From a bacterium (GTDB lineage Bacteria; Actinomycetota; Thermoleophilia; RBG-16-64-13), in assembly GCA_043801935.1 (NCBI GenBank), contig JAZDLO010000058.1, positions 7,075 to 71,074 of the forward strand: a stretch of 64,000 nucleotides of DNA. Direction: 5' to 3'. The number at the start of each line of letters is the position of its first letter. Positions within the stretch are counted from its first letter, which is position 1. The position numbers and the translations under genes are program-made. Positions 35,502 to 62,892 of the stretch are shown piece after piece. The notes beneath the pieces are model-generated. The model was not told the origin of the DNA, made no database searches, and saw nothing but the letters and a program-made list of their open reading frames with translations.

Positions 35502-35776
35502 AATACAACGTAGAGTTCTTCGGAATGACCAATGACGCAGCCGGCGTTCGTACTGTCGAGCTGGAACTGGACGATGGGGCAAGCCTCAAGGATCTTGTAG
35601 GCGCCCTTAGACGTAAAATGCCGGCTTTAGAGGGAAGCGTCATCCGTCCCGGAGAGGATAGATTGACGGCCCATTACGCCTTCAATGTGAACGGCCGTTT
35701 CTATGTCGATGATTACGACGTCGTGGTCGAAGGCGATGATCACATTCTGCTGCTGACTTTTGCCCTAGGCGGGTGA
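35498..35776 (+). CDS. MoaD/ThiS-family beta-grasp protein (C-terminal Gly-Gly)
   Basis: 92 aa ending ...LLTFALGG. GTGA overlap with the AOR stop. AOR-linked MoaD-like genes are known from other AOR operons. Confidence 0.75.
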   Translation: MKYNVEFFGMTNDAAGVRTVELELDDGASLKDLVGALRRKMPALEGSVIRPGEDRLTAHYAFNVNGRFYVDDYDVVVEGDDHILLLTFALGG

Positions 35777-41021: not shown

Positions 41022-43637
41022 GTGGCAGCTGACAAAGGCAACGAAAAGACGGTCATCAAAGCCCTCGGCCTGAGCGGGGGTATCTTTGGGGCCGCGCCCT
41101 GTGCCGTGGACGTGAAAGACGGACGGATAATCAGGGTCAGGCCGCTGCATTATGACTCCAAGTACGATTCCAGCGAATTCAATGCCTGGAAGATCGAAAA
41201 GGACGGAAAGACTCTGAAACCGCTGATGAAGGCGGTCCCTTCTCCGTTCAGCCTGGCTTACAAGAAGAGAGCCTATTCCCCCAACCGGGTGAAGTATCCG
41301 CTGAAGAGGGTCGATTGGGACCCCAACGGCGAGCGCAACCCGCAGAACCGGGGCAAGAGCAAGTTCGTCAGGATCTCCTGGGACGAAGCTACCGATCTCA
41401 TCGCCGGCGAGATCAGAAGAGTGCATAAAGAATATGGACCGCTGGGCATCCTGGTCCAGGGCGACGGGCACGGGGAATGCAAGATGGTCCATGCGCCGCA
41501 CGGCTGCCCGACACTGCTCCTCGACAAGATGGGGGGGTTCACCCAGCAGGTCAGGAACCCGGACAGCTGGGAAGGGTGGTACTGGGGGGCCAAACACGTG
41601 TGGGGATCTGGTCTGATCGGCATGATGGCCCCCGCGGACAACATCGTGAAGGACATCTGCGAGAACAGCGACATGGTGGTGGTCTGGGGAGGCGACCCGG
41701 AGACGACACCCTGGGGATTCAGGGGGCAGTTCGCCAGTCGCCTCTGTTTTTTCTGGTCGGAGATCGGGATCAAACAAGTCTATATCTGTCCCGACCTGAA
41801 TTACGCCGCAGCCATTCACGCCGACAAATGGATCCCGATCCTCCCCAACACCGATGCTGCCCTTCAGCTGGCCATCATCTACATGTGGATCAAGGAGGGG
41901 ACGTACGACAAAGAGTATGTCGAGACCCATACCGTCGGTTTTGACAAAGTCAGAGCCTATGTCATGGGGGATGAGGATGGAGTTCCCAAGACGCCGGAGT
42001 GGGCTTCCGAGAAGTGCGGGGTTCCGGAGTGGACCATCAAGGCCCTGGCACGGGATTGGGCGAAGAAGATCGTCACGATAGGTCACTACTTCGGAGGGGG
42101 CATGGCCCGGGGGCCCTGGTCCCACGAGCCGGCGCGCTTGGAAGTGATCCTGCTGGGGATGCAGGGATTGGGCAAACCGGGTGTCCACCAGGCCCAGATC
42201 GCGTACCAAGGGATGCCCAGAAACATCATGGCCCGCGGCACCGGCCATATGGGGATGTTCCAGAATCTCGTGAACTCGCCTGCGGGGGACCGGTTGCTAA
42301 AGCCCCACAAGACCACGCCCACCGCCTGGGGCAAGCAGCTCCTCCCCAAGACCCTGATCGAGGAAGGCATCAAGAAGCCGCCGGTCCATTTCTGGGGGAC
42401 CGGAGGTCACGAGGTGCCGACGACGGATCAGTTCGTCAAGTACACCTATCCGATCCCGAAGGAAGACGGCGGGACGGAGATACACATGATCTGGACCGAC
42501 ACTCCTTGCCGCACCACCTGCTGGAACTGCGGCAACGATGTCGCCGATACCATGAGGCATCCGAAGATCGAGTGCATCGTGGCCCAGCACCCCTGGCTGG
42601 AGAACGACGCGCTGTTCTCCGACATCATCCTGCCGACCAACACCACTCTGGAGGTGGACGACATCTCCCCCTGCATCAGGGATGGAGATAGCTTCCAGAG
42701 CGTGTTGCTCATGAACCGGGCGATCAACCCCATCGGCGAATCCAAGAGCGACTACGAGGCGGTCTTGGAGGTCGCCAAAAAGCTCGGCAAGTACGACGAT
42801 GTCACCGAGGGCATGACGAATGAGGAACTGGTCAGGGCGGTCTTCGACGGTCTGGGGTTCGATGAACACATCAGCTGGGAGGAATTCCAGGAAAAGGGCT
42901 ACTGGGTGATCCCCGTGGATCCGGAATGGGAGAAGATCCCGGCAGGCCTCTACGGATTCTACGAGGATCCCGAAGCCAACCCGTTGCCCACGCCTACCGG
43001 AAAGCTCGAGTTCTATTCCGAGAGCCTTGCCCAGAACTTCCCCACCGACAACGAGAGACCGCCTATCCCCAAATGGATCGAGAAGAGCATCACCCATGAC
43101 GAGAGGATCACGAGCAAGCGGGCGGCCGTCTATCCTCTGCTCCTCATGTCCAACCACGGGAGATGGAGGGTCCACGCCCAATGTGACGACATCCCCTGGA
43201 CCCGAGAGGCTCCGACCTGCAAGGTCAAAGGCTTCGACGGCTACATGTACGAGCCTTGCTGGATGAACCCGAAGGACGCTGAGGCGAGGGGCATCAAGCA
43301 CGGCGACATCGTCAAGGTGTTCAACGAGAGGGGCGGCGTTCTCTGCGGCGCGCTGGTGTTCGAAAGGATCCGGCCCGGCGTGATCTCCATCGACCACGGA
43401 GCCAGGGCGGACTTCATCATTCCCGCCAAGCTGGACCGCGGGGGCGCGATCAACACCATCACTCCAGAGGGGCTGACTTCCAAGCATTGTGGCGGGCAGG
43501 CGACCAGCGGGTTCTTGGCTGAAGTGGAGCGAGTCTCCCTGAAGCAGATGGACGAATGGATGACAGATCATCCGGAGGCGTTCGAGAGGGAGTACGATCC
43601 GGCCTCGGGACTACGCTTCAACGCCTGGGTCGAGTGA
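41022..43637 (+). CDS. Molybdopterin oxidoreductase large subunit, AthL-like, clade A (copy A4), no adjacent small subunit
   Basis: 871 aa; GTG start after GAAGGGG. Closest to A1 (DWDPNGERNPQNRGKSKFVRISWDEA, QGDGHGECK, NPDSWEGWYWG, DAEARGIKHGDIVKVFNERG). The next gene, 43 nt on, is a TetR regulator. Confidence 0.9.
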   Translation: MAADKGNEKTVIKALGLSGGIFGAAPCAVDVKDGRIIRVRPLHYDSKYDSSEFNAWKIEKDGKTLKPLMKAVPSPFSLAYKKRAYSPNRVKYPLKRVDWDPNGERNPQNRGKSKFVRISWDEATDLIAGEIRRVHKEYGPLGILVQGDGHGECKMVHAPHGCPTLLLDKMGGFTQQVRNPDSWEGWYWGAKHVWGSGLIGMMAPADNIVKDICENSDMVVVWGGDPETTPWGFRGQFASRLCFFWSEIGIKQVYICPDLNYAAAIHADKWIPILPNTDAALQLAIIYMWIKEGTYDKEYVETHTVGFDKVRAYVMGDEDGVPKTPEWASEKCGVPEWTIKALARDWAKKIVTIGHYFGGGMARGPWSHEPARLEVILLGMQGLGKPGVHQAQIAYQGMPRNIMARGTGHMGMFQNLVNSPAGDRLLKPHKTTPTAWGKQLLPKTLIEEGIKKPPVHFWGTGGHEVPTTDQFVKYTYPIPKEDGGTEIHMIWTDTPCRTTCWNCGNDVADTMRHPKIECIVAQHPWLENDALFSDIILPTNTTLEVDDISPCIRDGDSFQSVLLMNRAINPIGESKSDYEAVLEVAKKLGKYDDVTEGMTNEELVRAVFDGLGFDEHISWEEFQEKGYWVIPVDPEWEKIPAGLYGFYEDPEANPLPTPTGKLEFYSESLAQNFPTDNERPPIPKWIEKSITHDERITSKRAAVYPLLLMSNHGRWRVHAQCDDIPWTREAPTCKVKGFDGYMYEPCWMNPKDAEARGIKHGDIVKVFNERGGVLCGALVFERIRPGVISIDHGARADFIIPAKLDRGGAINTITPEGLTSKHCGGQATSGFLAEVERVSLKQMDEWMTDHPEAFEREYDPASGLRFNAWVE

Positions 43638-43686
43638 GATAGGCGACCGCTAGGGACACTCGGCCTCGCGGAGAAGGAGGGTGCCG

Positions 43687-44274
43687 ATGGCGCGGATGAC
43701 GGCGGCGGAGCGTAAGGCTCAGATAATCGAAGTGGTGCTGGGCCTCGTGAACAAGCACGGAGTGCAGGGCACCACGACTGCTCGTATCGCGGCCGCGGCC
43801 GGAGTGACCGAGCCGACCCTCTATAAGTACTTCGACAATCGGCGGGAGATGCTCCTCGCCGCCCTCGACGTGGTTTTCGACCGAGCCGAGGAAGTGGTCA
43901 GGTCTTCCGACGAAAGCGATGCCGTCGAACGCCTCCGCAGGATCGGCCAATATCACACCCGAGAGACCAATGCGAAAAGGCTCGGGTTCGTCAATCCCCT
44001 CTTCGAGTTCATGGTGGCTCCTCCCGAGACAGGCCTGCGCGACAGGGTCAGGAGCCGAAATCTGGTCGTCATAAACGAGCTTGCTGCCATCGTCCAAGAG
44101 GGTAAGGCCCAGGGGCGCATCCGCCCGGACGTGGATGCCAAGCGCGTAGCCTGGCGGATAATGGGTTTCTACTGGTTCGAGGATGTCTCGTCCCTCATGG
44201 ATCTCTCCGAAGTCGTGACAGAGGGTATGTCGGAAGAGATGTTCGAGCGCATCATCGCCGATATCCGAGCCTAG
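43687..44274 (+). CDS. TetR/AcrR-family transcriptional regulator
   Basis: The HTH reads GVQGTTTARIAAAAGVTEPTLYKYFDNRREML. ATG 43687 lies 6 nt after GAAGGAGG; GTG 43681 is too close to the SD. Confidence 0.88.
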   Translation: MARMTAAERKAQIIEVVLGLVNKHGVQGTTTARIAAAAGVTEPTLYKYFDNRREMLLAALDVVFDRAEEVVRSSDESDAVERLRRIGQYHTRETNAKRLGFVNPLFEFMVAPPETGLRDRVRSRNLVVINELAAIVQEGKAQGRIRPDVDAKRVAWRIMGFYWFEDVSSLMDLSEVVTEGMSEEMFERIIADIRA

Positions 44275-44401
44275 GACCGAGACTATCGTGATCCTGGGCT
44301 GATGCGGCCCTGATTGACACGTAGTCCCCATCATGTTACAAGGATAGTCTGCGCTAACTTGGAGCGCTCGTCAGATCGGGAATCGTGAAAGGGGAGGGGC
44401 A

Positions 44402-45886
44402 GTGCAAGAAGAGGAACGGGAATCCCAGGTTGAGGGTCTCGCTTCGCTCGCCGGCAAGTCTGTTTCACGGCGTGATTTCCTGAAGATGGCCGGCGTGGCC
44501 GGGGCGGCTGTCGGCGTGGGTGGCGGGCTGGCCGCCTTCATCGCCGGTTGCGGCGAGGAGACGACCACGACCACGGGCGGGGTCACGACAACCGGCGCTA
44601 CCACGGCCACGACCGCCGGCTCGACGACCACCGTTGCCGCCGGGCCCGAGATGGGCAGGGAGATCAAGTTCGGTTGCGTCTCTCCCCTCACCGGCCCCGC
44701 GTCGGCCTTTGGCATCCCCGACAAATGGATCCTGGACGAGTGGTTGGCTGCCGCCGGTGACGGGCTGGTCTTCGGCGACGGCATGAAGCACCCGATCAAG
44801 ATCGAGATGCGGGATAGCCAGTCGGATACCAACCGTGCAGCGCAGGTGGCTGGCGACCTCATCCAGAACGACAAGATCGACATGATGATGGTGTCTTCCA
44901 GCCCAGACACGGTCAACCCGGTGGCCGACCAGTGCGAGGCCCTGAGTATGCCGTGTCTGTCGAGCGACTGCCCCATGGAGCCGTACTACTTCGGCCGCGG
45001 TGCCACTCCCGACAAGCCGTTCAAGTGGACCTATCTGCTCTTCTGGGGGAACTACGAGCTCATGGAGGCCGCCAAGGTAGTCCTACCGCAGCTGCCTAAC
45101 AATAAGGTGGTCGGCGGCGTATGGTCCAACGAGGTCGACGGCGAGGCTCGGCGGCAGGCCCTCACGCCGTTCTTCGAGGAGAACGGCTACACAGTGGTAG
45201 ACGGCGGGCCATACCAGCCTGGTCAAGAGGACTACTCCTCCATGATCAACAACTTCAAGAAGGGCGGCGTGGAGATCGTCAGCTTCCTCGGTGTCCCGCC
45301 TGACATGGCCAACTTCTGGAAGCAGTGCCTCCAGCAAGGGTTCAATCCGGTTATTGCGGATATGGCCAAAGCCACGTTGTTCCCAACGGCGATGGAAGCC
45401 CTCGGAAACACAGGTTTCGGCATGATCGCCTGGTCATGGTGGCATCCGACCCTCCCGTGGAAGTCCTCCCTCACCGGCGAGGATTGCGCGACTATCGCCA
45501 CCCGCTTCGAAAAGGACACCGGCCAGCAGTGGACGCAACCGCTGTTGCACTACGTCACCTTCGAGTGGGCCGTGGACGTGTACAAGCGGGTCACCAACAT
45601 CGACGACAAAGAAGAGATCATGAAGGTCGTGGCCTCGAGCAAGATGGCGGACTCGATGGCCGGGGCGTTCGACTTCACCTCCCCGGTGGCGCCTAACAGC
45701 CGGCATATCGTGCCGAACGTCTACGGTACTCCGTGTTACTACGGGCAGTGGCTGGCGGCGACCAAGCAGTACCCATGGGACGTCCAGCAGTGGACGTACG
45801 ACTTGGTCCCCGTCGACAACACCATGTGCCCGGAACTCGCCATACAGAGCAAGCTGCAGCCCATCGACTACGCCTCCATGACTTAA
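44402..45886 (+). CDS. LivJ-type substrate-binding lipoprotein with Tat-like signal (SBP3)
   Basis: SRRDFLK, lipobox IAGC, and the linker GEETTTTTGGVTTTGATTATTAGSTTT. The body is paralogous to SBP4. AAAGGGGAGGGG SD. Confidence 0.9.
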   Translation: MQEEERESQVEGLASLAGKSVSRRDFLKMAGVAGAAVGVGGGLAAFIAGCGEETTTTTGGVTTTGATTATTAGSTTTVAAGPEMGREIKFGCVSPLTGPASAFGIPDKWILDEWLAAAGDGLVFGDGMKHPIKIEMRDSQSDTNRAAQVAGDLIQNDKIDMMMVSSSPDTVNPVADQCEALSMPCLSSDCPMEPYYFGRGATPDKPFKWTYLLFWGNYELMEAAKVVLPQLPNNKVVGGVWSNEVDGEARRQALTPFFEENGYTVVDGGPYQPGQEDYSSMINNFKKGGVEIVSFLGVPPDMANFWKQCLQQGFNPVIADMAKATLFPTAMEALGNTGFGMIAWSWWHPTLPWKSSLTGEDCATIATRFEKDTGQQWTQPLLHYVTFEWAVDVYKRVTNIDDKEEIMKVVASSKMADSMAGAFDFTSPVAPNSRHIVPNVYGTPCYYGQWLAATKQYPWDVQQWTYDLVPVDNTMCPELAIQSKLQPIDYASMT

Positions 45887-45974
45887 CTCAACTCGACTAC
45901 GACGTGAAGGTCATCGCCAACACTACGGCTTCCCCGATCGAAATGCAGGGCTCGCTGGAGCCGCAGGCCCAAGG

Positions 45975-46286
45975 TTGTGGCAGGCTGTGCAACCGGTCGT
46001 GGTGAACGTCGAGCTGTACGGGATCGTACGGGATCTGGTCAAGGATAGGAACGTGGAGGTCTGCCTTCCTGACCGGGAAGGCGCCTCGTACGGAGACGTG
46101 TTGGAGAACCTGGCGGAGCGGTACGGCCCTGCTTTTCGGGACCGGCTGTTCGGTAGCCAGGGCCTCCTGAGTTATGTGAAGGTCTATGCCGGTGGGAAGC
46201 CGGTCGAGGAGCTGGACCAGGCTCTGCCGGTCGGAGACGACCCGGCGGTGCGGATCATCGTCTTTGCGGCCGCGGGCGGCGGCTAG
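45975..46286 (+). CDS. MoaD/ThiS-like beta-grasp protein (C-terminal GGG); start uncertain
   Basis: VNVELYGIVRDLV...VKVYAGGKPV...IIVFAAAGGG has the MoaD-like length and terminus. Candidate starts are TTG 45975 or GTG 45999/46002. Confidence 0.55.
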   Translation: MWQAVQPVVVNVELYGIVRDLVKDRNVEVCLPDREGASYGDVLENLAERYGPAFRDRLFGSQGLLSYVKVYAGGKPVEELDQALPVGDDPAVRIIVFAAAGGG

Positions 46287-46374
46287 AGTCGGTCCCGGAG
46301 TTCTGGGTCGTTTCGGCCCGGAGCTCCGGGACCGGCGTCATTAGTCAGCGACTTGGCGACACGGAGTGAATCAT

Positions 46375-48960
46375 ATGAAAGATACGAAAACCGAGCGCGC
46401 TCACGAAGATGTGTGGATCCCCACTGTCTGTGCAAATTGCTTCTCGTTCTGCCCGATCAAGGCCCATCGCGTCGACGGAGTGATCACCAAGATCGAGGGT
46501 AACCCCGATGACCCCCTCACCCAGGGACGCATCTGTGCGCGGGGCTTGAGTGGGATCAACATCCTCTACGATCCCAACCGGCTCGATTATCCGATGAAGC
46601 GGACCAACCCGGAGAAGGGTCGAGGGATCGATCCCAAGTGGGAGCGTATCAGTTGGGACGAGGCGCTCGAGACGATCGCCGAGAAGCTGAAAGAAGTCCA
46701 CGAAGACGATCCTCGCAAGCTGGTCGCGAGCTTCGGAGTGAACGGCGGGCCGCAGTCTTACACGCTGGAGGCCTTCGCGGTGGCGTACGGCACCCCCAAC
46801 ATCTTTGTGGGCGGCGCTGGGAACCACTGCGCGAGCGGTAAGCACTTTATCGGAGGTCTGACACACGCAGCTTGGGTGTCGCAGCCCGACTACAACTACT
46901 GCAACTACTTCCTCAACTTCGGCGTGCCGGTCGGTACCGGCGCCTACTATGGGGTGAACACGACCGTCCGCAAGATGGCGGAAGCCCGGGCCCGGGGCAT
47001 GAAGCACGTGGTCCTCGACCCGTGGATGGGCATGCCGGCGCAGAGCGCGGACGAATGGATCCCGATCATCCCGGGCACGGATGCGGCCGTGGCTCTGGCC
47101 ATGGTCAACCTGCTTCTGAACGAGTACGGGGTCTTTGACCACGAGTATCTGGAGCATGAGACCAACGGTCCCTACCTTGTCGGCGACGACGGCCACTACG
47201 TGCGCGATGCCGATGGTAAGCCGCAGATGTGGGACTCGGTCGAGCGCCTGCCCAAAGCCTACGACGCCGACTTTCAACGGGTGGCGCTGGAGGTGGACGA
47301 GGTCGTCGAGGGACGGCGCGTCCGCAGCGCTTTCGGCGTCATCAAAGACCACGTCAAGAAGTACACCCCGGAGATGGCCGCCGACATCAGCGACGTGTCG
47401 GTAAAGACCATACGCCGGGTGGCACGCGAGTTTGGCGAGGCCGCCCGCATCGGCGACACGATCGTCCTAGAAGGGCACGAGCTTCCCTTCCGTCCGGTGG
47501 CCCTGGCCTACTTCAAAGGCCCACAGGCGCACCGGCATTCAGCCCTCATCTCCACTGCCCTGGAACTGCTCAGCGCAGTGGTCGGGGTCCGCGCGGTCCC
47601 GGGGAGCTACGTCGGGATCAACGCCCGCTCGGTCGGTCACCCCGAGACCGGCTTTCCCAAATGGTCGCCCACGGATGGCCCAGACGGGCTGCTCGTCACC
47701 GGCAGATGGGTGGTGCCGCCCTCGCAGCCATGGCCGCCCGTCTATCCCAAGAAGCCCATGGACCTGGGCCTTGCTCAGCTCATCCCGCCCTCCCACGGGA
47801 ATACGCCTATGCTCCCGCTGGTCGCCCAGGATCCGGAGAAGTACGGGATCGACTACAAGCCCGCCGTCCACCTGATGCTGTCCACCAACTTCGCCATGAG
47901 CCTGTCCGACCCGGAGAAGGTGGAGGGGTTCTTCAAGGAGGTGTTCACGGTCAACTTCAACATCTTCATGGACGAATCGGCGGAGTTGTCCGACATCGTC
48001 CTCCCCGACGCCAGCTACCTGGAGCGGCTGGACATCAACGCCGACTGGATGGCCAACGGGTGCGCCACCGACTCCTGGTCGTATCCGCTACGCCAACCGG
48101 CCATCGAGCCCGTAGCCGAGCGGCGGCCTGCGACCAAAGTCCTCCTCGAACTGGCGGAACGGATCGGACTGACCCCGGACATGAACGCAGTCATGAACGT
48201 CTCTCTCGGGTTCCGGGGACCACACCTGCTCGAATCGGACAAGAGCTACACGGCCGAAGAGCTGGTCGACCGGCGCTACAAGTCCTGGTTCGGGGACAAG
48301 TTCGACCTGGAGTGGATGAAGGCCAACGGCATCCTCGTCTGGCCCAAGAAGGCCGAGGAGGTCTATTGGCACCCCTTCGTGAAGACGCGCATCCCTATCT
48401 ACTTCGAGCACTTCCTCACGTTCAAGGAGATGCTCCAGGATATCCAGAAGGAGACCGGTCTGTTCCCGGATCTCGATCTGGAGGACTACCAGCCGTTCCC
48501 GGACTGGCGCCCTTGCACGTCTCACACCGAGTCCCGGCCCGAGTTCGATCTGACGGCCATCTACTTCCGGGTGCCCTTCCAGTCCTTCACCATGACGGGC
48601 AACAACGCCTGGCTCGATGAAGTGTCGGCCATCGACACCTACGCAAACACGCTTAACATCAACGCCGCCACGGCCGCCAAGAAAGGTATCAAGGACGGTG
48701 ACTGGATCGAGCTCGAGTCTGCCGCCAACGGTAATACCGTACGGGGACGGGCCCGGCTGACTCAGGGGGTGCACCCGGCGGTGATCGCCATGTCCGGTCA
48801 CGGGGGGCACTGGGCCAAAGGGCTGCCCCTGGCGAGCAAGCCGGGTAAGGGCATAAACTTCAATCGTCTTCTCAAGCAGGACTTCGAGCACATGGACACC
48901 CTCTCCTTGAACCTCGACCTCTGTGTGAAGGTCAAGGCGACAAAGGTGGCGGGGCCTTAG
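46375..48960 (+). CDS. Molybdopterin oxidoreductase catalytic subunit, Psr/Phs/Ttr-like, with N-terminal [4Fe-4S] motif and no Tat signal
   Basis: ATG 46375 lies 8 nt after GGAG. CANCFSFC...GRICARG (CxxCxxxC...C) begins at residue ~19. An in-frame stop at 46342 leaves no room for a signal peptide. Confidence 0.88.
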   Translation: MKDTKTERAHEDVWIPTVCANCFSFCPIKAHRVDGVITKIEGNPDDPLTQGRICARGLSGINILYDPNRLDYPMKRTNPEKGRGIDPKWERISWDEALETIAEKLKEVHEDDPRKLVASFGVNGGPQSYTLEAFAVAYGTPNIFVGGAGNHCASGKHFIGGLTHAAWVSQPDYNYCNYFLNFGVPVGTGAYYGVNTTVRKMAEARARGMKHVVLDPWMGMPAQSADEWIPIIPGTDAAVALAMVNLLLNEYGVFDHEYLEHETNGPYLVGDDGHYVRDADGKPQMWDSVERLPKAYDADFQRVALEVDEVVEGRRVRSAFGVIKDHVKKYTPEMAADISDVSVKTIRRVAREFGEAARIGDTIVLEGHELPFRPVALAYFKGPQAHRHSALISTALELLSAVVGVRAVPGSYVGINARSVGHPETGFPKWSPTDGPDGLLVTGRWVVPPSQPWPPVYPKKPMDLGLAQLIPPSHGNTPMLPLVAQDPEKYGIDYKPAVHLMLSTNFAMSLSDPEKVEGFFKEVFTVNFNIFMDESAELSDIVLPDASYLERLDINADWMANGCATDSWSYPLRQPAIEPVAERRPATKVLLELAERIGLTPDMNAVMNVSLGFRGPHLLESDKSYTAEELVDRRYKSWFGDKFDLEWMKANGILVWPKKAEEVYWHPFVKTRIPIYFEHFLTFKEMLQDIQKETGLFPDLDLEDYQPFPDWRPCTSHTESRPEFDLTAIYFRVPFQSFTMTGNNAWLDEVSAIDTYANTLNINAATAAKKGIKDGDWIELESAANGNTVRGRARLTQGVHPAVIAMSGHGGHWAKGLPLASKPGKGINFNRLLKQDFEHMDTLSLNLDLCVKVKATKVAGP

Positions 48961-49009
48961 GGGAACGGCTCGACCGCGCCGGCCTCGTGGAAAGGAGACA
49001 AGGGCTCTC

Positions 49010-49642
49010 ATGCGTTATGGAATGGTGATAGATCTCAAACGGTGCATCAGCTGCTATGCGTGTCAGGTAGCCTGCAAATCGGAGAACGCCACTCCGCCGG
49101 GTGTGCTCTACGCCTGGGCGTTCAGGATGGAAGAGGGCGAATACCCGAATACCCGGCAGGTCTACTTGCCCATGCTCTGCAATCACTGCGACGAGCCCAG
49201 CTGCGTCGACGTCTGCCCCACTGGGGCCACCTACAAGCGGGATGAGGACGGCATCGTCGTGATCGATGCGGGCAAATGTGTGGGCTGCCGAGCCTGTATG
49301 ACCGCCTGTCCGTATCATGCCCGCTACTATCTGGACCAGATCCGGAATTATTACCCCGGCCAAGGTCTCACCCCCTATGAAGAGGTGGGATACGAGAGGC
49401 ACAACGCGGGCACCGTCGAGAAGTGTAACTTCTGCGTCGAGCGGTTGGAGCGGGGGGAGGAGCCGGCCTGCGTGGCCAACTGCCCTGCCGTCGCCCGCAT
49501 ATTCGGTGACTTTGACGATCCCGACAGCGAAGTGAGCATACTGGTGAGCCGGGACGCCGGGTTCCAACTGCTGCCCGACTTGGGCAACGATCCTTCGGTC
49601 TACTATCTACCTGCCGAGAGGCCGGCCAAGGAGTCGCGATGA
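49010..49642 (+). CDS. 4x[4Fe-4S] ferredoxin subunit (PsrB/NrfC/DmsB-like)
   Basis: CISCYACQVACK, CNHCDEPSCVDVCP, CVGCRACMTACP, CNFCVERLERGEEPACVANCP. Confidence 0.9.
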   Translation: MRYGMVIDLKRCISCYACQVACKSENATPPGVLYAWAFRMEEGEYPNTRQVYLPMLCNHCDEPSCVDVCPTGATYKRDEDGIVVIDAGKCVGCRACMTACPYHARYYLDQIRNYYPGQGLTPYEEVGYERHNAGTVEKCNFCVERLERGEEPACVANCPAVARIFGDFDDPDSEVSILVSRDAGFQLLPDLGNDPSVYYLPAERPAKESR

Positions 49643-50535
49643 ACCGTTCGACAGTGACTCTCTATTCCGATCTAGGGGCCGTATACCGGCCGGAGCGGGT
49701 CTGGGCGGAAGGCCGGGCGGTCGCCTTGGTCCTCGCGCACTTCCTATCAGGGGCAGGCGCGGGGGCATGGCTGCTAGGACTGGTGCTCGACTTGCGGCTC
49801 GCTTTGGTACTCGGGCTTGGCGCCGTCGTCCTCGGCGGGATAGTACATCTCGGCTTTCTGGGGCATCCGGAACGAGCCTGGAAGATGATGATGCGTCCCC
49901 AGAGCTCCTGGATCAGCCGGGGTCTCTGGTCGATGATCGTGTTCGTCCCGACCGCGGCTCTGTACGTCGCTGCTGCCTACGGAGCCTGGAGCACGAGTTC
50001 GGCCTTCGCCATAGTCATGCTGGTGCTGTCCCTACTGGGTATGGCGGGCATATTCCTGTACAAAGGGTTCGTCTATGCCGTGTCGCGGGCCGTGCCGCTG
50101 TGGCACTCGCCGTTGCTACCTGTTTCGTACATCGCGATCGGGCTTCGGGGAGGCGCCGCCCTGGCCTTCGTGGGCCTGGCGTTCGTCGCCCCCGATTCTG
50201 AGATCCACTCCGCTCAGACATGGTGGCTGGCGGCTACGGTGGTGACCATCTTCCTGTTCGTGCTCGAGCTGGCGATGGGCCGGAGCGACTCGACCATATC
50301 CCGCTCGCTCGCGGTGCTCGCGCGGGGCTCGATCGCCTGGATCTTCTTCGTCGGAGCAGTGCTGCTGGGGGTTGTCATCCCGGCCGCGCTGGTGATCGCC
50401 AGCTACCCGGCCTCGATCGGCGTCGCCGGCTTCCTGATCGCCGGGGTCGCTTCGCTGGTGGGGGATCTGGCCTACAAGTACTGCATGAACACGGCGGGTA
50501 CCTACGTGCCTCTCGTCCCTGCTCGAGGCAAATAG
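49639..50535 (+). CDS. NrfD/PsrC-like polytopic membrane anchor
   Basis: 298 aa and strongly hydrophobic, with about 8 predicted helices. ATGA overlap with the ferredoxin gene. Confidence 0.8.
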   Translation: MNRSTVTLYSDLGAVYRPERVWAEGRAVALVLAHFLSGAGAGAWLLGLVLDLRLALVLGLGAVVLGGIVHLGFLGHPERAWKMMMRPQSSWISRGLWSMIVFVPTAALYVAAAYGAWSTSSAFAIVMLVLSLLGMAGIFLYKGFVYAVSRAVPLWHSPLLPVSYIAIGLRGGAALAFVGLAFVAPDSEIHSAQTWWLAATVVTIFLFVLELAMGRSDSTISRSLAVLARGSIAWIFFVGAVLLGVVIPAALVIASYPASIGVAGFLIAGVASLVGDLAYKYCMNTAGTYVPLVPARGK

Positions 50536-50565
50536 TGGTCCGCCGGTCGCGGTAGGGAGTCAAGT

Positions 50566-51144
50566 GTGGAATTGATCTTGGACGCGAAGAAGATGGCCCT
50601 GGTGGTCATCGACCTGCAGAAGGGGATCCTCGCTCTCCCCGCCGCCCCGTACTCTGCTGCCGAGGTGGTGGAGCGCGCGGCCGCGCTGTGCCGGGCCGCG
50701 CGCGAGGCTGAGGGTACCGTGGTCCTGGTGAGGGTCACGCCCTCGGCAGACGGCGGGGATGCGTTGCGGCCTCATGTCGATCAAGGCCCGTTGTCCGGTT
50801 CTCAGCCGCCTGCCGACTGGGCGGAGTTGTCTCCCGAGCTGGACATGCAGCCGGGAGATATCGTCATCACCAAGCGCCAATGGGGAGCCTTCTACGGAAC
50901 GGAGCTCGACTTACAGCTGCGTCGGCGCGGGGTGGACACCATCGTCCTGTGCGGCATCTCCGCGAACATAGGCGTCGAGTCCACGGCCCGTGACGCATAT
51001 GAGCGGGCCTACAATCTGATCATTGTCGAGGACGCCATCGCCGCCCGCACTGCAGAAGAGTACGCGTTTGTCATGCGGACGTTGTTTCCGCGGATCGGAC
51101 GGGTCCGTAAGACGGCAGAGCTTCTGGCAGCGCTGGAGGCTTGA
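50566..51144 (+). CDS. Isochorismatase-family hydrolase
   Basis: ALVVIDLQKG, ITKRQWGAFYGT, VLCGISANIGVESTARDA (Asp-Lys-Cys triad context). GTG start after GGGAG. Confidence 0.85.
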   Translation: MELILDAKKMALVVIDLQKGILALPAAPYSAAEVVERAAALCRAAREAEGTVVLVRVTPSADGGDALRPHVDQGPLSGSQPPADWAELSPELDMQPGDIVITKRQWGAFYGTELDLQLRRRGVDTIVLCGISANIGVESTARDAYERAYNLIIVEDAIAARTAEEYAFVMRTLFPRIGRVRKTAELLAALEA

Positions 51145-51308
51145 CCGGCGGCGACAGGATCGAGTCGTGACCGGCCAAGAGTCGCCGCGACCGAGTCGTC
51201 GCCTGGATCCGAACGCGGCGCCCGGGCGTCGGTGGGTTGTGCGGGTAGACTGTTCCTGACGGCAACCGGGGCAGCACGTTTTTCCCAAGCGAGTTGAGGA
51301 GGAGATCA

Positions 51309-52208
51309 GTGAAAACCATAGGTTTTCTTGGCATGGGTGTAATGGGCTCGCGGATGTCAGCTCGTCTGTTGGCCGCCGGCCACGAAGTCACGGTGTGGAA
51401 CCGCACCGCGGAAAAAACGGTCCCGTTGGCGGAGAAGGGCGCGGCAGTCGCGGTTTCCCCGGCCGAGGCGGCGGCGGGCAAGGACATGGTTCTCAGCAAT
51501 CTGACCGACGGACCGGCGCTGAAGAGCGTGATCCTGGGGCCGGGAGGCGTTCTGGAGGCCGTTCCCCTACCCGGGCTGTTCGTCGACTTCGCCACGATCG
51601 CGCCTTCGGAATCCGCTGAGATCGCCGCGATGCTCGAGCCGCGCGGCGTCGACTTCCTTCGGGCGCCGGTCAGCGGGACCATGGCTGTGGCCGAAGCGGG
51701 CAAGCTGACCATCATCACCTCCGGCGACCGGGCGGTGTTCGACGCAGCCGACCCGGTTCTGGCCGTATTGGGCGAGACCCGCTACTACGTCGGTCCCGGG
51801 GAGAACTCCCGCTACTTGAAGCTCATCCACCAGATCATGATCGCAGCCACCATGCAGGTGTGGGCCGAGGGTCTGGTGATGGGTGAAAAGGCCGGGCTCG
51901 ACTGGGAGATCATGCTGGAAGTACTGCGCAACAGCGCGGTGGGTTCTGGCGCGGTGAAGGGCAAGATCCCTTCCCTGGCTATCCGGGACTACGACCACCC
52001 GGCGATGAGTATGCACAACATCGTCAAGGACGTCGACCTGGCCCTCATGGCGGCGGACGAGGTGGGGGTCGAGTTGCCGGCGACCAGATGGGTGCGCGAG
52101 CTCTACGATCGGGGCCTCGCGGCCGGGTTCGAGTGGAAGGACTACTCGGCGATCATACTGGAACTAGAGAAGCGCGCCGGGCTGGAGCCTCTGGAGATGG
52201 CGACGTGA
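51309..52208 (+). CDS. NAD(P)-dependent beta-hydroxyacid dehydrogenase (3-hydroxyisobutyrate dehydrogenase family)
   Basis: IGFLGMGVMGSRMSARLLAAGHEVTVWNRT Rossmann motif. GTG 51309 follows GAGGAGGAG. Confidence 0.85.
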   Translation: MKTIGFLGMGVMGSRMSARLLAAGHEVTVWNRTAEKTVPLAEKGAAVAVSPAEAAAGKDMVLSNLTDGPALKSVILGPGGVLEAVPLPGLFVDFATIAPSESAEIAAMLEPRGVDFLRAPVSGTMAVAEAGKLTIITSGDRAVFDAADPVLAVLGETRYYVGPGENSRYLKLIHQIMIAATMQVWAEGLVMGEKAGLDWEIMLEVLRNSAVGSGAVKGKIPSLAIRDYDHPAMSMHNIVKDVDLALMAADEVGVELPATRWVRELYDRGLAAGFEWKDYSAIILELEKRAGLEPLEMAT

Positions 52209-52236
52209 CGGCGGCGAGCGGGGGGGTCAAGCAGTG

Positions 52237-54825
52237 ATGGCGGATGTGGAGAGACTGACCAACAGCACAACGGGAGGCCCCGTCTTCGTGGACGTGAAAG
52301 ACGGCGAGATCTTGCGCATCATACCCATCGATCTGGACGAGACGGACGCCCCCTCGTGGAAGATCGAGGCGCGGGGCCGGACGTTCTCGCCCTCGCGAAG
52401 GACGACCTTGTCCCCATGGACGGTGGCGCACAAATCCACCATCTACTCTCCCAAACGCATTCTCACCCCGCTCAAGCGGGTCGACTTCGATCCCAACGGC
52501 GCCCGTAATTGCCAGAACCGGGGCGTCTCCGGGTACGAACCGATCAGCTGGGACGAGGCTCTCGATCTGGTAGCGGACGAGATGATGCGGGTGAAGAGAG
52601 AACTGGGCCCGGGGGGCATCTTGACCACGCCGGGCTCGCACCACATGTGGGGGAATGTCGGCTATCGCTTCAGCGCCTACTACCGGTTCATGGATCTCGT
52701 GGGCATGACCTACGCCGAGCACAATCCCGACAGCTGGGAAGGCTGGCACTGGGGCGCCATGCACATGTGGGGCTTCAGTCACCGTCTGGGTATCCCGGAG
52801 CAGTACGATCTGCTTGAAGACGCTCTCCAGAACACGGAGATGGTGGTGTTTTGGTCGGCCGATCCCGAGTCGACCTCGGGCTGCTACGCGGCCTTCGAGA
52901 GCACGGCTCGCCGGTTCTGGCTCAAGGAGCTAGGGGTCAAGATGGTCTTCATCGATCCCTACTTCAACCACACCGCCGGGCTCTTCTCCGACAAATGGTT
53001 CGCCCCTCGCCTGGGCACTGATGTGGCTATGGCGCTCGCGGTCGCCCACGTTTGGCTCAGTGAGGGAACGTATGACAAGGACTACGTCGCCGGCCGCACC
53101 ACCGGATTCGACCAGTGGAGGGACTACGTGCTGGGCGCGTCCGACGGCCGGCCGAAGACCCCCGAATGGGCTGAGGGCGAGAGCGGTGTGCCGGCCCGGG
53201 AGATAAGGGCTCTGGCCCGTGAGTGGGCGGCGAAGAAGACCATGTTGGCGGCCGGCGGTTTTGGCGGCATGGGCGGGGCCTGTCGCTCGGCGACCGGTAA
53301 CGAGTGGGCGCGCGCCATGGTGGCGCTCGCCGCCATGCAGGGCCTCGGTAAGCCCGGCAGCAACATATGGGGTACCACCTTGGGCGCGCCCGTCGACGCC
53401 TCCTTCATGTTCCCGGGCTATTCTGAGGGTGGCATCTCCTGCAACCTTGACAACACAGCCGCCGGCTTCCGCTGGGCCTACCGGATGTTCCCCCGCGGAG
53501 GAGTATCCGGCAGCGTCCACCATTCCGTCGAGGGGCAGACCGTTCCCCGTCTGCGGATCCCGGAAGCGATGCTCCATGAGTCTTTGGAGTGGAGGGGCAA
53601 GGGCTTCTGCGGGGGGTCGATCCCGTCCCAGCTCAAGAAATACGAATACCCCGCTCCAGGTTATCCCCATGTGGGCATGTACTACCGCTACGGGGGTTCT
53701 TTCTTCGGCACCATGACCGAGACCAACCGCTACGTGAAGGCATACCAGGCGGATACGGTGCCCTTCGTGGTGAACCAATCGATCTGGATGGAAGGGGAAG
53801 CCAAGTTCGCCGACGTCATCCTGCCCGCGTGCACCAATTTCGAGCGCTGCGACATCAGCGAGGTCGCCTGGGCGGCCGGTTACGGGTGCGACGGCAACAC
53901 TCAACCCAACCACCGGATGATCGTCCTGCAGAAGAAGTGCATCGAGCCTTTGGGGGAGTCGAAGTCCGACTACGAGATATTCGCGGAGCTCTCCAAGCGG
54001 CTGGGCGTCTACGACATGTTCACCATGGGTGGCAAGACCGATCTGGACTGGGTGAAACAGGTCTTCCACGCCACCGACCTTCCGGAGCGCGTCACCTGGG
54101 AGGAGTTCGAGAAGAAGGGCTACTACGTCGTCCCGGTCCCCGATGACCGCGCGCCGACGCCGGCTCTGCGTTGGTTCGCCGAGGGCCGCGCGAAAGACAC
54201 TCCCGACTGGGGTCCGCGTCCTTCGGATACCGTTCAGCTGGCCGGGCTTCAGACCACCTCGGGTAAGATCGAGTTCGTCGCGTCCAGTCTCACCTGGTTG
54301 GAGGAGTCCGGCACGGTCGACTCCGAGCGACCGGCGCTGGGTCCCCAGTACATCGAGTCCTGGGAAGGTCACCACACGACCGAGCTGTACGGCACATACC
54401 CTCTGCAGCTGGTTTCCCCTCACCCGCGTTTCAGCTTCCACACGATGGGAGACGCCAAGGATTCGTGGACGAACGACATCAAGGACCACCGGATCCTGAA
54501 GGAGGACGGTCATCACTACTGGATCATCAGGCTTAGCCCGAGGGATGCCGAAGCACGGGGCATCGCCGACGGCGACCTCGTGAGGGCGTTCAACGACCGG
54601 GGTGCGGTCATCCTTGCCGCTCAGGTCACGGAGCGGCTGCCTCCAGGCACCGTGCATTCGTACGAATCGTGTGGCGATTACGACCCGATCGGGGCGCCGG
54701 GCGAGTCACCCGACCGAGCCGGGTGCGTGAACATCCTCACGCCTAAGCGGTTCATCACTCCGACCTCGACCGCCATGGCCAACAACTCCTGCCTGATCCA
54801 GGTGGAGAAGTGGCCAAGCTCTTAG
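52237..54825 (+). CDS. Molybdopterin oxidoreductase large subunit, the paralog closest to my recollection of AthL (clade B, copy A5), no adjacent small subunit
   Basis: ADVERLTNSTTGGPVFVDVKDGEILRIIPIDLDETDAPSWKIEARGRTF closely tracks the P. acidigallici AthL N-terminus as I recall it. Also PGSHHMWGNVGYR, NPDSWEGWHWG, FPGYSEGGIS, ILPACTNFERCDIS, YESCGDYDP. Confidence 0.9.
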   Translation: MADVERLTNSTTGGPVFVDVKDGEILRIIPIDLDETDAPSWKIEARGRTFSPSRRTTLSPWTVAHKSTIYSPKRILTPLKRVDFDPNGARNCQNRGVSGYEPISWDEALDLVADEMMRVKRELGPGGILTTPGSHHMWGNVGYRFSAYYRFMDLVGMTYAEHNPDSWEGWHWGAMHMWGFSHRLGIPEQYDLLEDALQNTEMVVFWSADPESTSGCYAAFESTARRFWLKELGVKMVFIDPYFNHTAGLFSDKWFAPRLGTDVAMALAVAHVWLSEGTYDKDYVAGRTTGFDQWRDYVLGASDGRPKTPEWAEGESGVPAREIRALAREWAAKKTMLAAGGFGGMGGACRSATGNEWARAMVALAAMQGLGKPGSNIWGTTLGAPVDASFMFPGYSEGGISCNLDNTAAGFRWAYRMFPRGGVSGSVHHSVEGQTVPRLRIPEAMLHESLEWRGKGFCGGSIPSQLKKYEYPAPGYPHVGMYYRYGGSFFGTMTETNRYVKAYQADTVPFVVNQSIWMEGEAKFADVILPACTNFERCDISEVAWAAGYGCDGNTQPNHRMIVLQKKCIEPLGESKSDYEIFAELSKRLGVYDMFTMGGKTDLDWVKQVFHATDLPERVTWEEFEKKGYYVVPVPDDRAPTPALRWFAEGRAKDTPDWGPRPSDTVQLAGLQTTSGKIEFVASSLTWLEESGTVDSERPALGPQYIESWEGHHTTELYGTYPLQLVSPHPRFSFHTMGDAKDSWTNDIKDHRILKEDGHHYWIIRLSPRDAEARGIADGDLVRAFNDRGAVILAAQVTERLPPGTVHSYESCGDYDPIGAPGESPDRAGCVNILTPKRFITPTSTAMANNSCLIQVEKWPSS

Positions 54826-54911
54826 AGCATCAAGGTCTACAGGAGGAACGTCCGGGGGCACGGTAGGACCTCCGGCTGCGAAGGCCTCGGAACCTGTGCT
54901 ACATTCGGCCG

Positions 54912-55172
54912 ATGAAGATCATCGATAGTCCCGTTCCGCTGGGGGAACTTGCCCTCCACTCCGACGAAGAGGCGCTTCTTCTCGAACGCGGCTCCGAGCA
55001 ACATCAGCTTTGGGGGATCAACATCTATCCCGATCTGGTAGGTCCGGAGCGGGTCGAGTTCGATTCCATGATCGACATCCGTCCCTCGCAGGGCAATCGC
55101 TCGCGGGGTGTGGACGATCTTGAGATCCGCGCCAGGATGCTTCGCATCGTGGACGCCCCGGTCACGTCGTGA
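54912..55172 (+). CDS. Small conserved hypothetical protein (I believe DUF5674-like)
   Basis: LHSDEEALLLERGSEQHQLWGINIYPD...VEFDSMIDIRPSQGNRSRGVDD matches a recalled family pattern (HADxEA.LLE.GS.Q..LWG...IRP.QGN). The N-terminus seems shorter than the family norm. Confidence 0.5.
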   Translation: MKIIDSPVPLGELALHSDEEALLLERGSEQHQLWGINIYPDLVGPERVEFDSMIDIRPSQGNRSRGVDDLEIRARMLRIVDAPVTS

Positions 55173-55513
55173 ACCCTCAGCATCCAGACCTGGCGGCTGG
55201 CCGGTGGTGCACCATGGCGCTCGTCGAGCAATTGGCGAACGTGGGCAGCGAGGTGGAGCGCGCGCTTGGCTGGGCCTCCAAGGGCAACCGCGAGTACGGC
55301 CGTCAGGCGCTCGAACGCGGATTGGAGCTGTTGGATCTGACGATCGCCGACCCCAAGCATCGACATCGGCTTAAGGAACTGACCCGGTTGCGCGAGGTCC
55401 TCTTGGATTATTTTCTCGGAGAGAACCAATTTGGCTCGACTGAGAGCAGTTGGAGAAGCTATTTCGACGCGTATGGCCTCGCGGCTGCGATCAAGAGGGA
55501 AGCGGCGAGGTGA
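55169..55513 (+). CDS. Small helical hypothetical protein; start uncertain
   Basis: LANVGSEVERALGW...KGN..Y...ALERGLELLDLTIAD...RLKELTRLREVLLDYFLGEN resembles a recurrent uncharacterised family. GTG 55169 gives a GTGA overlap; ATG 55214 is an alternative start. Confidence 0.5.
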   Translation: MNPQHPDLAAGRWCTMALVEQLANVGSEVERALGWASKGNREYGRQALERGLELLDLTIADPKHRHRLKELTRLREVLLDYFLGENQFGSTESSWRSYFDAYGLAAAIKREAAR

Positions 55514-61853: not shown

Positions 61854-62025
61854 GTCGGGCACTCCTTAAGTCGTGGCGAAAACCGCCTTTGTCCTGTTCG
61901 GGGATCGATTGCCGGTCCATCCGATTTCGCGTCGGTGCGTGCCACACGGTATCTTAGTCGCAGGATTCGGCGTGTCAATCGGCGACAAGCATATCCTTGT
62001 TGCGGGCAAAGGAGAGTGGACCATC

Positions 62026-62892
62026 ATGGGAGGGTACTCCATTTTCGACGGCACCATCGCCGACATGACCTGGCCGGCGGTGCAGGAAGCCGCCGGCAGG
62101 AACGCGGTCTTGCTCGTGCCCATCGCTGTGATAGAGCAACATGGGCCGCATTTGCCGCTGGCCACGGATACCTATGGAGCTTTTCTCCTCTGCTCAAAGG
62201 TGCGGACGGAACTGATCAGAGCCAACGTCGCGACCGTCATGGCTCCGCCCTACTACTTCGGGATGAATCCGACTACCGGGATGTTCCCGGGGTCGCTGCA
62301 CATCAGTCGCCCGACTATGCTCGCCGTGCTTACCGAACTCTTCCTCAACTACGGCCAATGGGGTTTCAAACGGCAGTTCATTCTTAACCACCACGGTGAC
62401 CCCACCCATAATGACACCATCATGGAGGCCATCCGTATCGTTAGGGACGAGGGCATCGACGCGGTCTACACGATGGGTGGTTTCGCCCGCCAATTCATCG
62501 AAGAAGCGTACACCGCCGCCTTTCACAAACCGCTTCCTCTGCCCAGGTCTGCGCTTGTTCAAGCGGACGAGTCAGAAGCCACTGCCCGAGTCAGGGAGCG
62601 CGTCACGAAGTCCGACCTTCATGTACATGCCGAGGAGTTCGAGACGAGCATGATCATGAGATGGTATCCGGAGGTGCTCGACCGCAGCGTGGACCTGTCC
62701 GGCCTGAGGCCGGTCTTGCCCACGCCCGAGCAATTCGGGGAAGCCATCCAGCAAGGCAAGTGGAGGGAGCTTTCTCCCCTCGGCTACATCGGAGATCCCT
62801 CGGTGTCGACGCGAGAGAACGGTGAGTTGTACGCGCTGGCGGCGGCCGATATCGCGAGCGCCATCGTGGAGTTCCTTGGACGGAAAGCATAG
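62026..62892 (+). CDS. Creatininase-family metal-dependent hydrolase
   Basis: AVLLVPIAVIEQHGPHLPLATD and NHHGDPTHN are typical of the creatinine amidohydrolase fold. ATG 62026 follows AAAGGAGAG. Confidence 0.8.
   Translation: MGGYSIFDGTIADMTWPAVQEAAGRNAVLLVPIAVIEQHGPHLPLATDTYGAFLLCSKVRTELIRANVATVMAPPYYFGMNPTTGMFPGSLHISRPTMLAVLTELFLNYGQWGFKRQFILNHHGDPTHNDTIMEAIRIVRDEGIDAVYTMGGFARQFIEEAYTAAFHKPLPLPRSALVQADESEATARVRERVTKSDLHVHAEEFETSMIMRWYPEVLDRSVDLSGLRPVLPTPEQFGEAIQQGKWRELSPLGYIGDPSVSTRENGELYALAAADIASAIVEFLGRKA

Follow-up and report, generated by a model that had tools for sequence, protein, structure and literature searches.

A probably cytoplasm-facing, NrfD-anchored molybdo- or tungstoenzyme of the PadBCD type, with a conserved MoaD-like gene, in a Thermoleophilia genome

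Molybdoenzymes that are anchored to the membrane by an NrfD-type subunit are usually described as periplasmic redox-loop enzymes, and a gene cluster from a bacterium of the class Thermoleophilia (lineage RBG-16-64-13) raises the question of which side of the membrane such an enzyme may face. The cluster lies in a stretch of 64,000 nucleotides (assembly GCA_043801935.1, contig JAZDLO010000058.1, positions 7,075 to 71,074), hereafter the window, and encodes on the forward strand a catalytic subunit (alpha, 46375–48960), a four-cluster ferredoxin subunit (beta, 49010–49642) and an NrfD-type anchor (gamma, 49639–50535), preceded by a small MoaD-like beta-grasp gene (45975–46286). An earlier note, made from the sequence alone, had proposed that the catalytic dimer faces the cytoplasm while docked on a quinone-type anchor, and the analysis described here agrees with it. 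The reading that we favour, with a probability of about 65%, is that the cluster encodes a cytoplasm-facing, membrane-anchored complex iron–sulfur molybdo- (or tungsto-) enzyme of the PadBCD type. This topology, which the earlier note had set apart from that of textbook polysulfide, thiosulfate and tetrathionate reductases, does run opposite to that of canonical NrfD subunits, but it is not new, as PadBCD and SoeABC already have it. The new element of the locus is the MoaD-like gene.

The three subunits have the architecture of the complex iron–sulfur molybdoenzymes of the DMSO-reductase superfamily. The alpha subunit (861 residues) carries the Pfam domains Molybdop_Fe4S4, Molybdopterin and Molydop_binding above cut-off and the CxxCxxxC motif of the FS0 [4Fe-4S] cluster at Cys19, Cys22 and Cys26, preceded by 18 residues. 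Its Cys152 aligns with the molybdenum ligand Cys173 of Thermus thermophilus PsrA and is invariant in 21 family members. The beta subunit contains 16 cysteines in four groups (Pfam Fer4_11), and its gene is joined to that of gamma by the ATGA overlap that had already been described (49639–49642). Gamma in turn matches Pfam NrfD (E 2.8e-13, 50.6 bits against a cut-off of 25.8). As for PadBCD, alpha and beta are without a twin-arginine translocation (Tat) signal, and the DmsC/NrfD-type anchor is predicted to be inverted.

Neither alpha nor beta has a Tat signal or the room for one. An in-frame TAG (46342–46344), 33 nucleotides upstream of the ATG of alpha, bars a longer N-terminus, as had been noted, and a GGAG stands 8 nucleotides before the ATG. 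The N-terminus of beta, MRYGMVIDLKRC, leads directly into the first cluster, and since the alignment of this subunit to the DsrO and TtrB models begins at their position 43, the leader of those proteins is missing. The same holds throughout the family. A search of a large protein collection returned more than 2000 relatives, the best 120 of which are all 45–90% identical to alpha and about 850–870 residues long. In about 110 full-length alpha homologs within this range of identity, the first FS0 cysteine stands at residue 10–36, after a conserved EDVWIP-type lead-in, and none of those inspected has a twin-arginine (RR) motif. About 60 family beta subunits inspected all begin M(x)R[YWL]GMVIDLKRC; a few apparent RR motifs among beta homologs proved to be artefacts of over-long open reading frames (ORFs). 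The absence is common to every full-length homolog inspected and thus not a matter of chance. Moreover, the earlier note had pointed out that a Tat motif on the ferredoxin subunit could carry alpha across the membrane as a hitchhiker, and the lack of such a motif on beta removes this test of the cytoplasmic reading. Clear Tat motifs are found elsewhere in the same genome, on the solute-binding protein encoded at 44402 in the window and on an NrfD-linked FeS protein of contig C71 (SRRDFLK), and the first of these shows that the Tat motifs of this organism are recognisable. By comparison, residue 40 of T. thermophilus PsrA aligns with residue 15 of alpha, which gives PsrA about 25 extra N-terminal residues.

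The orientation of the anchor was read from an alignment of 44 family gamma subunits, by per-column hydropathy and lysine/arginine (K/R) frequency; a per-sequence hydropathy helix predictor, which gave 5–11 helices for clear orthologs, was dropped and replaced by this alignment-based profile. Eight hydrophobic segments are seen. The conserved K/R residues add up to about 14 on the N-terminus, the C-terminus and loops 2, 4 and 6, and to about 0.7 on loops 1, 3, 5 and 7. The same two sets hold 15 and 1 K/R residues in the gamma subunit of the window (P0003), 13 and 3 in a second copy encoded in the same genome, and 20 and 2 in PadD. E. coli NrfD, which aligns with the family profile helix for helix in register (hhalign probability of 99.1%, 20–289 to 12–315), shows the opposite direction (5 against 8), and in the Tat-partnered NrfD protein of contig C71 loops 1 and 3 are K/R-rich and the N-terminus and loop 2 are poor. 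Under the positive-inside rule, this charge bias predicts an N-in/C-in gamma subunit, inverted as the docking of a cytoplasmic alpha–beta dimer requires. In canonical NrfD subunits the N-terminus lies on the membrane's P-side, SoeC being the one case in which an inversion is expected (PMC8076601). Gamma His70 and Ser89/Ser90 align with E. coli NrfD His74 and Thr90/Ser91, at the end of helix 2 and in loop 2; this region corresponds to the quinone-site region of the NrfD family and would here lie near the cytoplasmic side. Sequence and profile searches returned no solved structure for gamma, and E. coli DmsC gave a weak alignment with the family (42%). The cytoplasm-facing reading of alpha–beta is well supported, by three independent lines: an alpha without a Tat signal, a beta without one and an inverted anchor.

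With regard to kinship, alpha falls under all NCBIfam equivalog cut-offs, the best score being that of PhsA (257.8 against 694), with ArrA (146.4 against 1600) and TtrA (84.2 against 1750) further below, and the nearest named Atlas cluster is labelled 'related to phenylacetyl-CoA:acceptor oxidoreductase'. A reference PadB was obtained by searching genomes of the order Rhodocyclales for PadI with its NCBIfam equivalog model, which led to a Sulfuritalea metagenome-assembled genome (MAG); its cluster runs FdhD-PadB-PadC-PadD-padE..I-CoA ligase, and its PadI scores above the NCBIfam cut-off. This syntenic PadB (921 residues, no Tat signal), the closest characterised relative of alpha, can be aligned with the whole of it at 29% identity (280 bits, E 3e-85); the precedent named in the earlier note was the same enzyme, phenylacetyl-CoA:acceptor oxidoreductase. 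In quick maximum-likelihood (ML) trees the family of the window is monophyletic and forms its own clade (SH-aLRT 99), which joins PadB, a third copy from the genome of the window and a Sporomusa protein (91), then a SoeA-like protein (85) and then a Tat-bearing ArrA-like protein; on the other side stand DmsA, the AthL-like proteins of the window and small soluble MopB proteins. When 201 Pseudomonadota genomes were searched with the NCBIfam models for PhsA and ArrA, no PhsA turned up and the one ArrA-like match was sub-threshold; no second PadB was found in the stretch of genome G147 that was examined, and a literature search for a characterised member of the clade or for 'PadB-like' enzymes returned nothing relevant. 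By these comparisons, the locus belongs to a large, uncharacterised sister lineage of PadB, with an added conserved MoaD-like partner.

The MoaD-like ORF (P0004), whose true start may be a GTG at 45987 or 46002, ends in AAAGGG, in keeping with the Gly-Gly-ended beta-grasp gene that had been reported directly upstream of alpha. Its family profile (A3) matches the solved structures of MoaD (1vjk, E 8.6e-11; 2m19) and SAMP1 end to end, including the terminal Gly-Gly, which is invariant in 22 of 22 members; half of these (11/22) reach Pfam ThiS, and P0004 itself scores under the NCBIfam cut-offs for MoaD and SAMP1. The earlier note did not recognise the association with alpha as a standard one. 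It proves to be conserved and real: of the 56 loci with room for it, at least 33 have the MoaD-like gene beside alpha by a family hidden Markov model, nearly always immediately upstream, and in at least six homologs (P0029, P0033, P0059, P0073, L012 and L014) the domain is fused to the N-terminus of alpha, with a junction that reads ...GG, then 4–8 residues, then the EDVWI lead-in. The Gly-Gly is therefore internal in the fused forms, whereas in the free forms it is strictly C-terminal. To our knowledge, no complex of a DMSO-reductase-type alpha subunit with a MoaD-like protein has been solved. Structure prediction of the pair gave an ipSAE of 0.81 (median run) against 0.17 for the best control, a mark reached by 58 of 80 solved complexes and by 2 of 110 mismatched pairs. 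At least 84% of the contacts are common to the runs, the partner pLDDT is at least 79, and the predicted interface joins the first strand and the last strand and tail of the small protein to alpha residues 109–145, 447–475 and 601–621. In this model, the MoaD-like protein is a predicted partner of alpha.

What such a partner might do is suggested by the rest of the genome. No match to MoaE (PF02391) was found in the assembly (2.83 Mb, 93% complete), which encodes more than 10 pterin enzymes, although a MoaE gene could lie in the unassembled 7%; the MoaD-like gene is not next to one, and two ThiF/MoeB-type genes are present (contigs C52 and C246). The window itself contains an aldehyde:ferredoxin oxidoreductase (AOR) gene (33648–35501) followed by an overlapping MoaD-like ORF (35498–35776) that ends in LGG, and further Gly-Gly-ended MoaD-like genes of the same genome lie beside a second AOR gene (contig C187) and a xanthine-dehydrogenase-type gene (contig C179). 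Distinct MoaD-like genes strictly beside or fused with AOR have been described before, with a proposed role in cofactor supply (Iyer, Burroughs & Aravind 2006, PMC1779556). As the pterin cofactor is the common factor of the three unrelated enzyme folds that are flanked by MoaD-like genes, a role in cofactor maturation or insertion is favoured, with a stable fourth subunit or sulfur delivery as alternatives. A bolder and rather doubtful proposal is that these proteins form a new class of enzyme-dedicated ubiquitin-like partners, each docking on its own apo-enzyme (here on the N-terminal region of alpha), which would either deliver sulfur on site through a Gly-Gly thiocarboxylate, for the dithiolene or a Mo=S ligand, or stay as a fourth subunit, partly replacing the MoaD/MoaE route. 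The idea arises because MoaE is undetected, because MoaD-like genes flank DMSO-reductase-, AOR- and xanthine-dehydrogenase-type enzymes, and because the sulfurtransferase FdhD holds the same position in the PadB cluster.

The family is widespread. Among species-representative genomes (one per species), at least 564 relatives were confirmed, of which the best 80 all come from MAGs. Identity to alpha is 80–88% in Actinomycetota/Thermoleophilia and 41–54% in Chloroflexota, Desulfobacterota, Nitrospinota, Methylomirabilota, Acidobacteriota, Rhodospirillales and Burkholderiales; the phyla with relatives are Actinomycetota, Chloroflexota, Desulfobacterota, Nitrospinota, Methylomirabilota, Acidobacteriota and Proteobacteria, nearly all of the members being uncultured, and many genomes hold several alpha copies. 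The family is a separate, large and uncharacterised clade found almost only in MAGs. The sequencing runs that contain relevant DNA are groundwater, sediment or biofilm metagenomes, with no RNA run among those listed. The subunits appear to be modular, since the 56 alpha loci with enough flanking DNA have both beta and gamma in 29 cases, beta only in 7, gamma only in 1 and neither in 19. Two further sets are encoded in the genome of the window itself, a full one on contig C115 and a PadB-like one on C88. The latter, the third of the genome (L093, 681–4836), has the order anchor-alpha-beta and a degenerate FS0 motif (CxxCx5C), and its DmsC-like anchor gives no alignment with the gamma family. 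In a Rhodospirillaceae MAG (L069, 664–8556) three tandem alpha paralogs stand without a beta, gamma or MoaD-like gene beside them, and other loci consist of alpha and the MoaD-like gene alone.

The orthologs of 80–88% identity share a conserved core of a TetR gene, a binding protein, the MoaD-like gene and alpha-beta-gamma. In the window, a TetR-family regulator gene (43681–44274, forward strand; Pfam TetR_N) heads the unit, with orthologs in the same place in L001, L004, L006 and L008. It is followed by the gene for the solute-binding protein (44402–45886, forward strand; Pfam Peripla_BP_6 and TAT_signal), which is kept upstream in L001, L005, L006 and L008 and is likely to be the periplasmic uptake component for the substrate. 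Across loci, the recurrent neighbour types are regulators, transporters, thiamine pyrophosphate (TPP)-dependent 2-oxoacid enzymes, aldehyde dehydrogenases, hydrolases (including cyclic-amide hydrolases), Asp/Glu/hydantoin racemases, UbiD and Old Yellow Enzyme (OYE) proteins, and the close orthologs also have creatinase-like, hydantoinase and xanthine-dehydrogenase-type genes nearby. These neighbourhoods point to the breakdown of organic acids, aromatic compounds or cyclic amides, varying by subclade. Genes for cyclic-amide enzymes near the closest orthologs include a creatininase-family gene in the window (61873–62892), hydantoinase A/B in L001 (16430–18577) and a creatinase-like M24 gene with an isochorismatase gene in L005 (11118–13005); their recurrence gives a weak hint of a hydantoin-, creatinine- or lactam-type substrate.

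These observations can be assembled into a working model. The alpha subunit would hold a bis-pyranopterin cofactor, with Cys152 as the ligand, together with the FS0 cluster, and beta would carry four [4Fe-4S] clusters. Both would be synthesised and loaded with their cofactors in the cytoplasm, without export, and would attach, on the cytoplasmic face, to an NrfD-type anchor inserted upside-down relative to PsrC, NrfD and DmsC. Most likely, the enzyme would oxidise or hydroxylate a small organic acid, amide or ester, take the oxygen from water and receive its substrate through the adjoining binding-protein-dependent transporter. From the metal, presumed to be Mo but possibly W, electrons would travel by way of FS0 and the four clusters and reach menaquinone at a quinone site close to the cytoplasmic side, and the enzyme would feed the quinone pool like SoeABC and PadBCD, with no redox loop formed. 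We infer that the MoaD-like protein would be a dedicated alpha-binding partner, most probably for cofactor maturation or insertion, which might stay as a fourth subunit.

The same topology would also serve the opposite direction of catalysis. In that case, which we regard as unlikely, the complex would act in the cytoplasm as a reductase that depends on quinol, for example a dehydroxylase or a reductase of the S-, N- or polysulfide type, with the MoaD-like protein maybe acting as a sulfur carrier at the active site. The nearest solved relatives by sequence, PsrA (2vpw) and ArrA, are indeed reductases. These two and acetylene hydratase, the best solved matches to alpha, are matched over the first ~260 residues alone, and T. 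thermophilus PsrA gives 138 bits in the N-terminal third only. Furthermore, the genome encodes many AthL-type enzymes for polyphenols, and the strictly C-terminal Gly-Gly of the free MoaD-like proteins is the mark of thiocarboxylate carriers. The fused forms, with their internal Gly-Gly, speak against such a carrier, and the presence of MoaD-like genes beside AOR- and xanthine-dehydrogenase-type enzymes is more readily explained by the shared pterin cofactor than by a role at the substrate. Moreover, PadBCD and SoeABC, the closest characterised systems with this topology, are quinone-reducing dehydrogenases, and the neighbours of the cluster are catabolic genes, the window containing none for sulfur metabolism.

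An orthologous relationship to SoeABC, by which the complex would be a sulfite:quinone oxidoreductase that detoxifies or oxidises cytoplasmic sulfite, seems very unlikely. The architecture and the predicted orientation are the same (PMC8076601), the loop-2 motif of gamma is similar to the one in a SoeC-like protein (98% by hhalign, over 124 columns), and the adjoining dehydrogenase has a match to sulfolactaldehyde reductase, albeit a sub-threshold one (160.8 bits, cut-off 348). As a reference, a Mo-FeS-DmsC set next to xsc on an Azospirillum plasmid (L100) was used, whose SoeA-like protein has 998 residues and no Tat signal. It is about 30% identical to alpha over 68% of the latter's length, a plasmid tblastn search gave only matches of at most 31% identity, and in the trees the protein falls outside the group formed by PadB and the family. 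SoeA-like proteins are also longer, at about 1000 residues against 861, and the window contains no sulfonate, dsr or sox genes.

A true PadBCD, a phenylacetyl-CoA:acceptor oxidoreductase that would oxidise phenylacetyl-CoA to phenylglyoxylate with acceptors of the quinone type, is given a smaller chance still. PadB is the closest characterised homolog, the subunits are of similar sizes and PadD shares the inverted charge bias. Against this, the identity is only 29%, and the Sulfuritalea genome that encodes the syntenic PadB has a separate and closer copy of the window's family (44% against 32%), from which it follows that the alpha of the window is not a PadB ortholog. PadB also differs in its FS0 spacing (CxxCx7C) and falls outside the family's own clade. 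Neither padEFGHI, the genes for phenylglyoxylate oxidoreductase, a phenylacetate-CoA ligase gene (padJ) nor FdhD is found nearby, and the whole 64-kb window contains no pad genes or CoA ligase. That the complex is periplasmic after all, through piggy-back export on another Tat substrate or an unrecognised signal, is most improbable, for although hitchhiker export is known for some Tat substrates and a binding protein with a Tat signal is encoded just upstream, no alpha or beta signal occurs among more than 100 homologs, the charge bias of the anchor is inverted as for cytoplasmic docking, and many family members have no beta, gamma or binding-protein gene nearby.

Several points weigh against the inward-facing, PadBCD-type dehydrogenase favoured here. 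Catalysis could run either way, and by analogy with its relatives in the wider Psr/Arr group, which are reductases, it might run towards reduction. The positive-inside rule is statistical, and every point made on the clade comes from sequence and prediction. The trees are quick-search trees with long branches and include no named PsrA, PhsA, TtrA or acetylene hydratase sequences. Of about 80 loci, no more than 9 share any one flanking gene family, and no substrate-defining neighbour is shared family-wide; the substrate class is a guess and probably differs between subclades. Lastly, the internal Gly-Gly of the fused MoaD-like forms would fit a structural or chaperone role and not the classical sulfur-carrier cycle, while the free forms keep theirs at the C-terminus.

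The remaining features of the region, all on the forward strand, bear less directly on the enzyme. A GC-rich hairpin of about 27 bp without a U-tract (46281–46346; minimum free energy of -57.1 kcal/mol, z -6.5) fills most of the 88-nucleotide gap between the MoaD-like gene and alpha. None of 200 shuffled sequences folds as well, and the hairpin might set the expression ratio of the upstream and downstream genes. A promoter and terminator scan of 43500–55300 gave counts that were not above those of shuffled sequence. Downstream of gamma lie a YcaC-type isochorismatase-family hydrolase gene (50566–51144; assigned by Pfam and by NCBIfam NF008517, at 236.9 bits, the cut-off being 195) and a gene for a beta-hydroxyacid dehydrogenase of the HIBADH / tartronate-semialdehyde reductase type (51294–52208; Pfam NAD_binding_2 and NAD_binding_11, under every NCBIfam equivalog cut-off). 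Both are present as the earlier note had it, but their association with the cluster is limited to two near-identical loci: the dehydrogenase gene occurs in L001 and L004, the two closest loci, only, and the isochorismatase gene in the same two with a weak match in L005. By this distribution they appear to be accessory genes and not conserved partners. In E. coli K-12 (L089, 940000–945500), ycaC stands directly beside dmsABC, on the opposite strand, which is the same pairing of families as at 50566–51144; the likeness is probably a coincidence. An AthL-like (pyrogallol-transhydroxylase-type) Mo subunit gene (52234–54825) begins on the same strand 25 nucleotides past the dehydrogenase gene, with no FeS subunit gene beside it, and may be co-transcribed with the cluster. 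The window contains five AthL-like alpha genes, plus a sixth, weak match at 8157.

The locus belongs to a third and very large, predicted inward-facing lineage of NrfD-anchored molybdoenzymes, beside PadBCD and SoeABC. Where metabolic reconstructions label such genes as polysulfide, thiosulfate or tetrathionate reductases, they probably give the enzyme both a wrong location and a wrong direction, and the MoaD-like partner, which is conserved and sometimes fused, offers a concrete lead on the maturation of cytoplasmic pterin enzymes. Among known systems, the closest is PadBCD of Thauera and Aromatoleum (Rhee & Fuchs 1999, as cited in PMC9765128; the reaction is described in PMC5109826), likewise a three-subunit membrane-bound Mo-FeS enzyme whose alpha and beta have no Tat signal and whose anchor has the same inverted bias. 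It belongs to a separate clade, with an FS0 motif of CxxCx7C against CxxCxxxC and a PadB of 921 residues against 861. The pad cluster has FdhD upstream, together with padEFGHI and a CoA ligase, whereas the locus of the window has none of these and a MoaD-like gene instead. SoeABC of Allochromatium vinosum and Aquifex aeolicus, the only inward-facing case listed in the NrfD review (PMC8076601, citing Dahl 2013 and Boughanemi 2020), shares the Tat-less alpha and beta, an NrfD-like anchor that is expected to be inverted and a quinone site that is expected to be cytoplasmic. It differs in being a more distant homolog of alpha, in its sulfur-metabolism setting and in having no MoaD-like partner at the locus examined (L100). 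PsrABC of T. thermophilus (PDB 2VPW–2VPZ), PhsABC and ArrAB(C) have in common with the cluster a Mo-bis(pyranopterin guanine dinucleotide) cofactor ligated by Cys, FS0, four [4Fe-4S] clusters and an NrfD anchor, but they face the periplasm and carry about 25 extra N-terminal residues, the Tat leader, and the similarity is confined to the first ~260 residues. With regard to the MoaD-like gene, the nearest parallel is the AOR-linked MoaD set (PMC1779556), which likewise consists of distinct MoaD-like genes strictly beside or fused to a pterin enzyme and of which the window holds an example in its own AOR pair. That set was described for tungsten aldehyde:ferredoxin oxidoreductases, whereas here the enzyme is a MopB-type alpha subunit, with an N-terminal fusion in some homologs and an interface predicted with high confidence.

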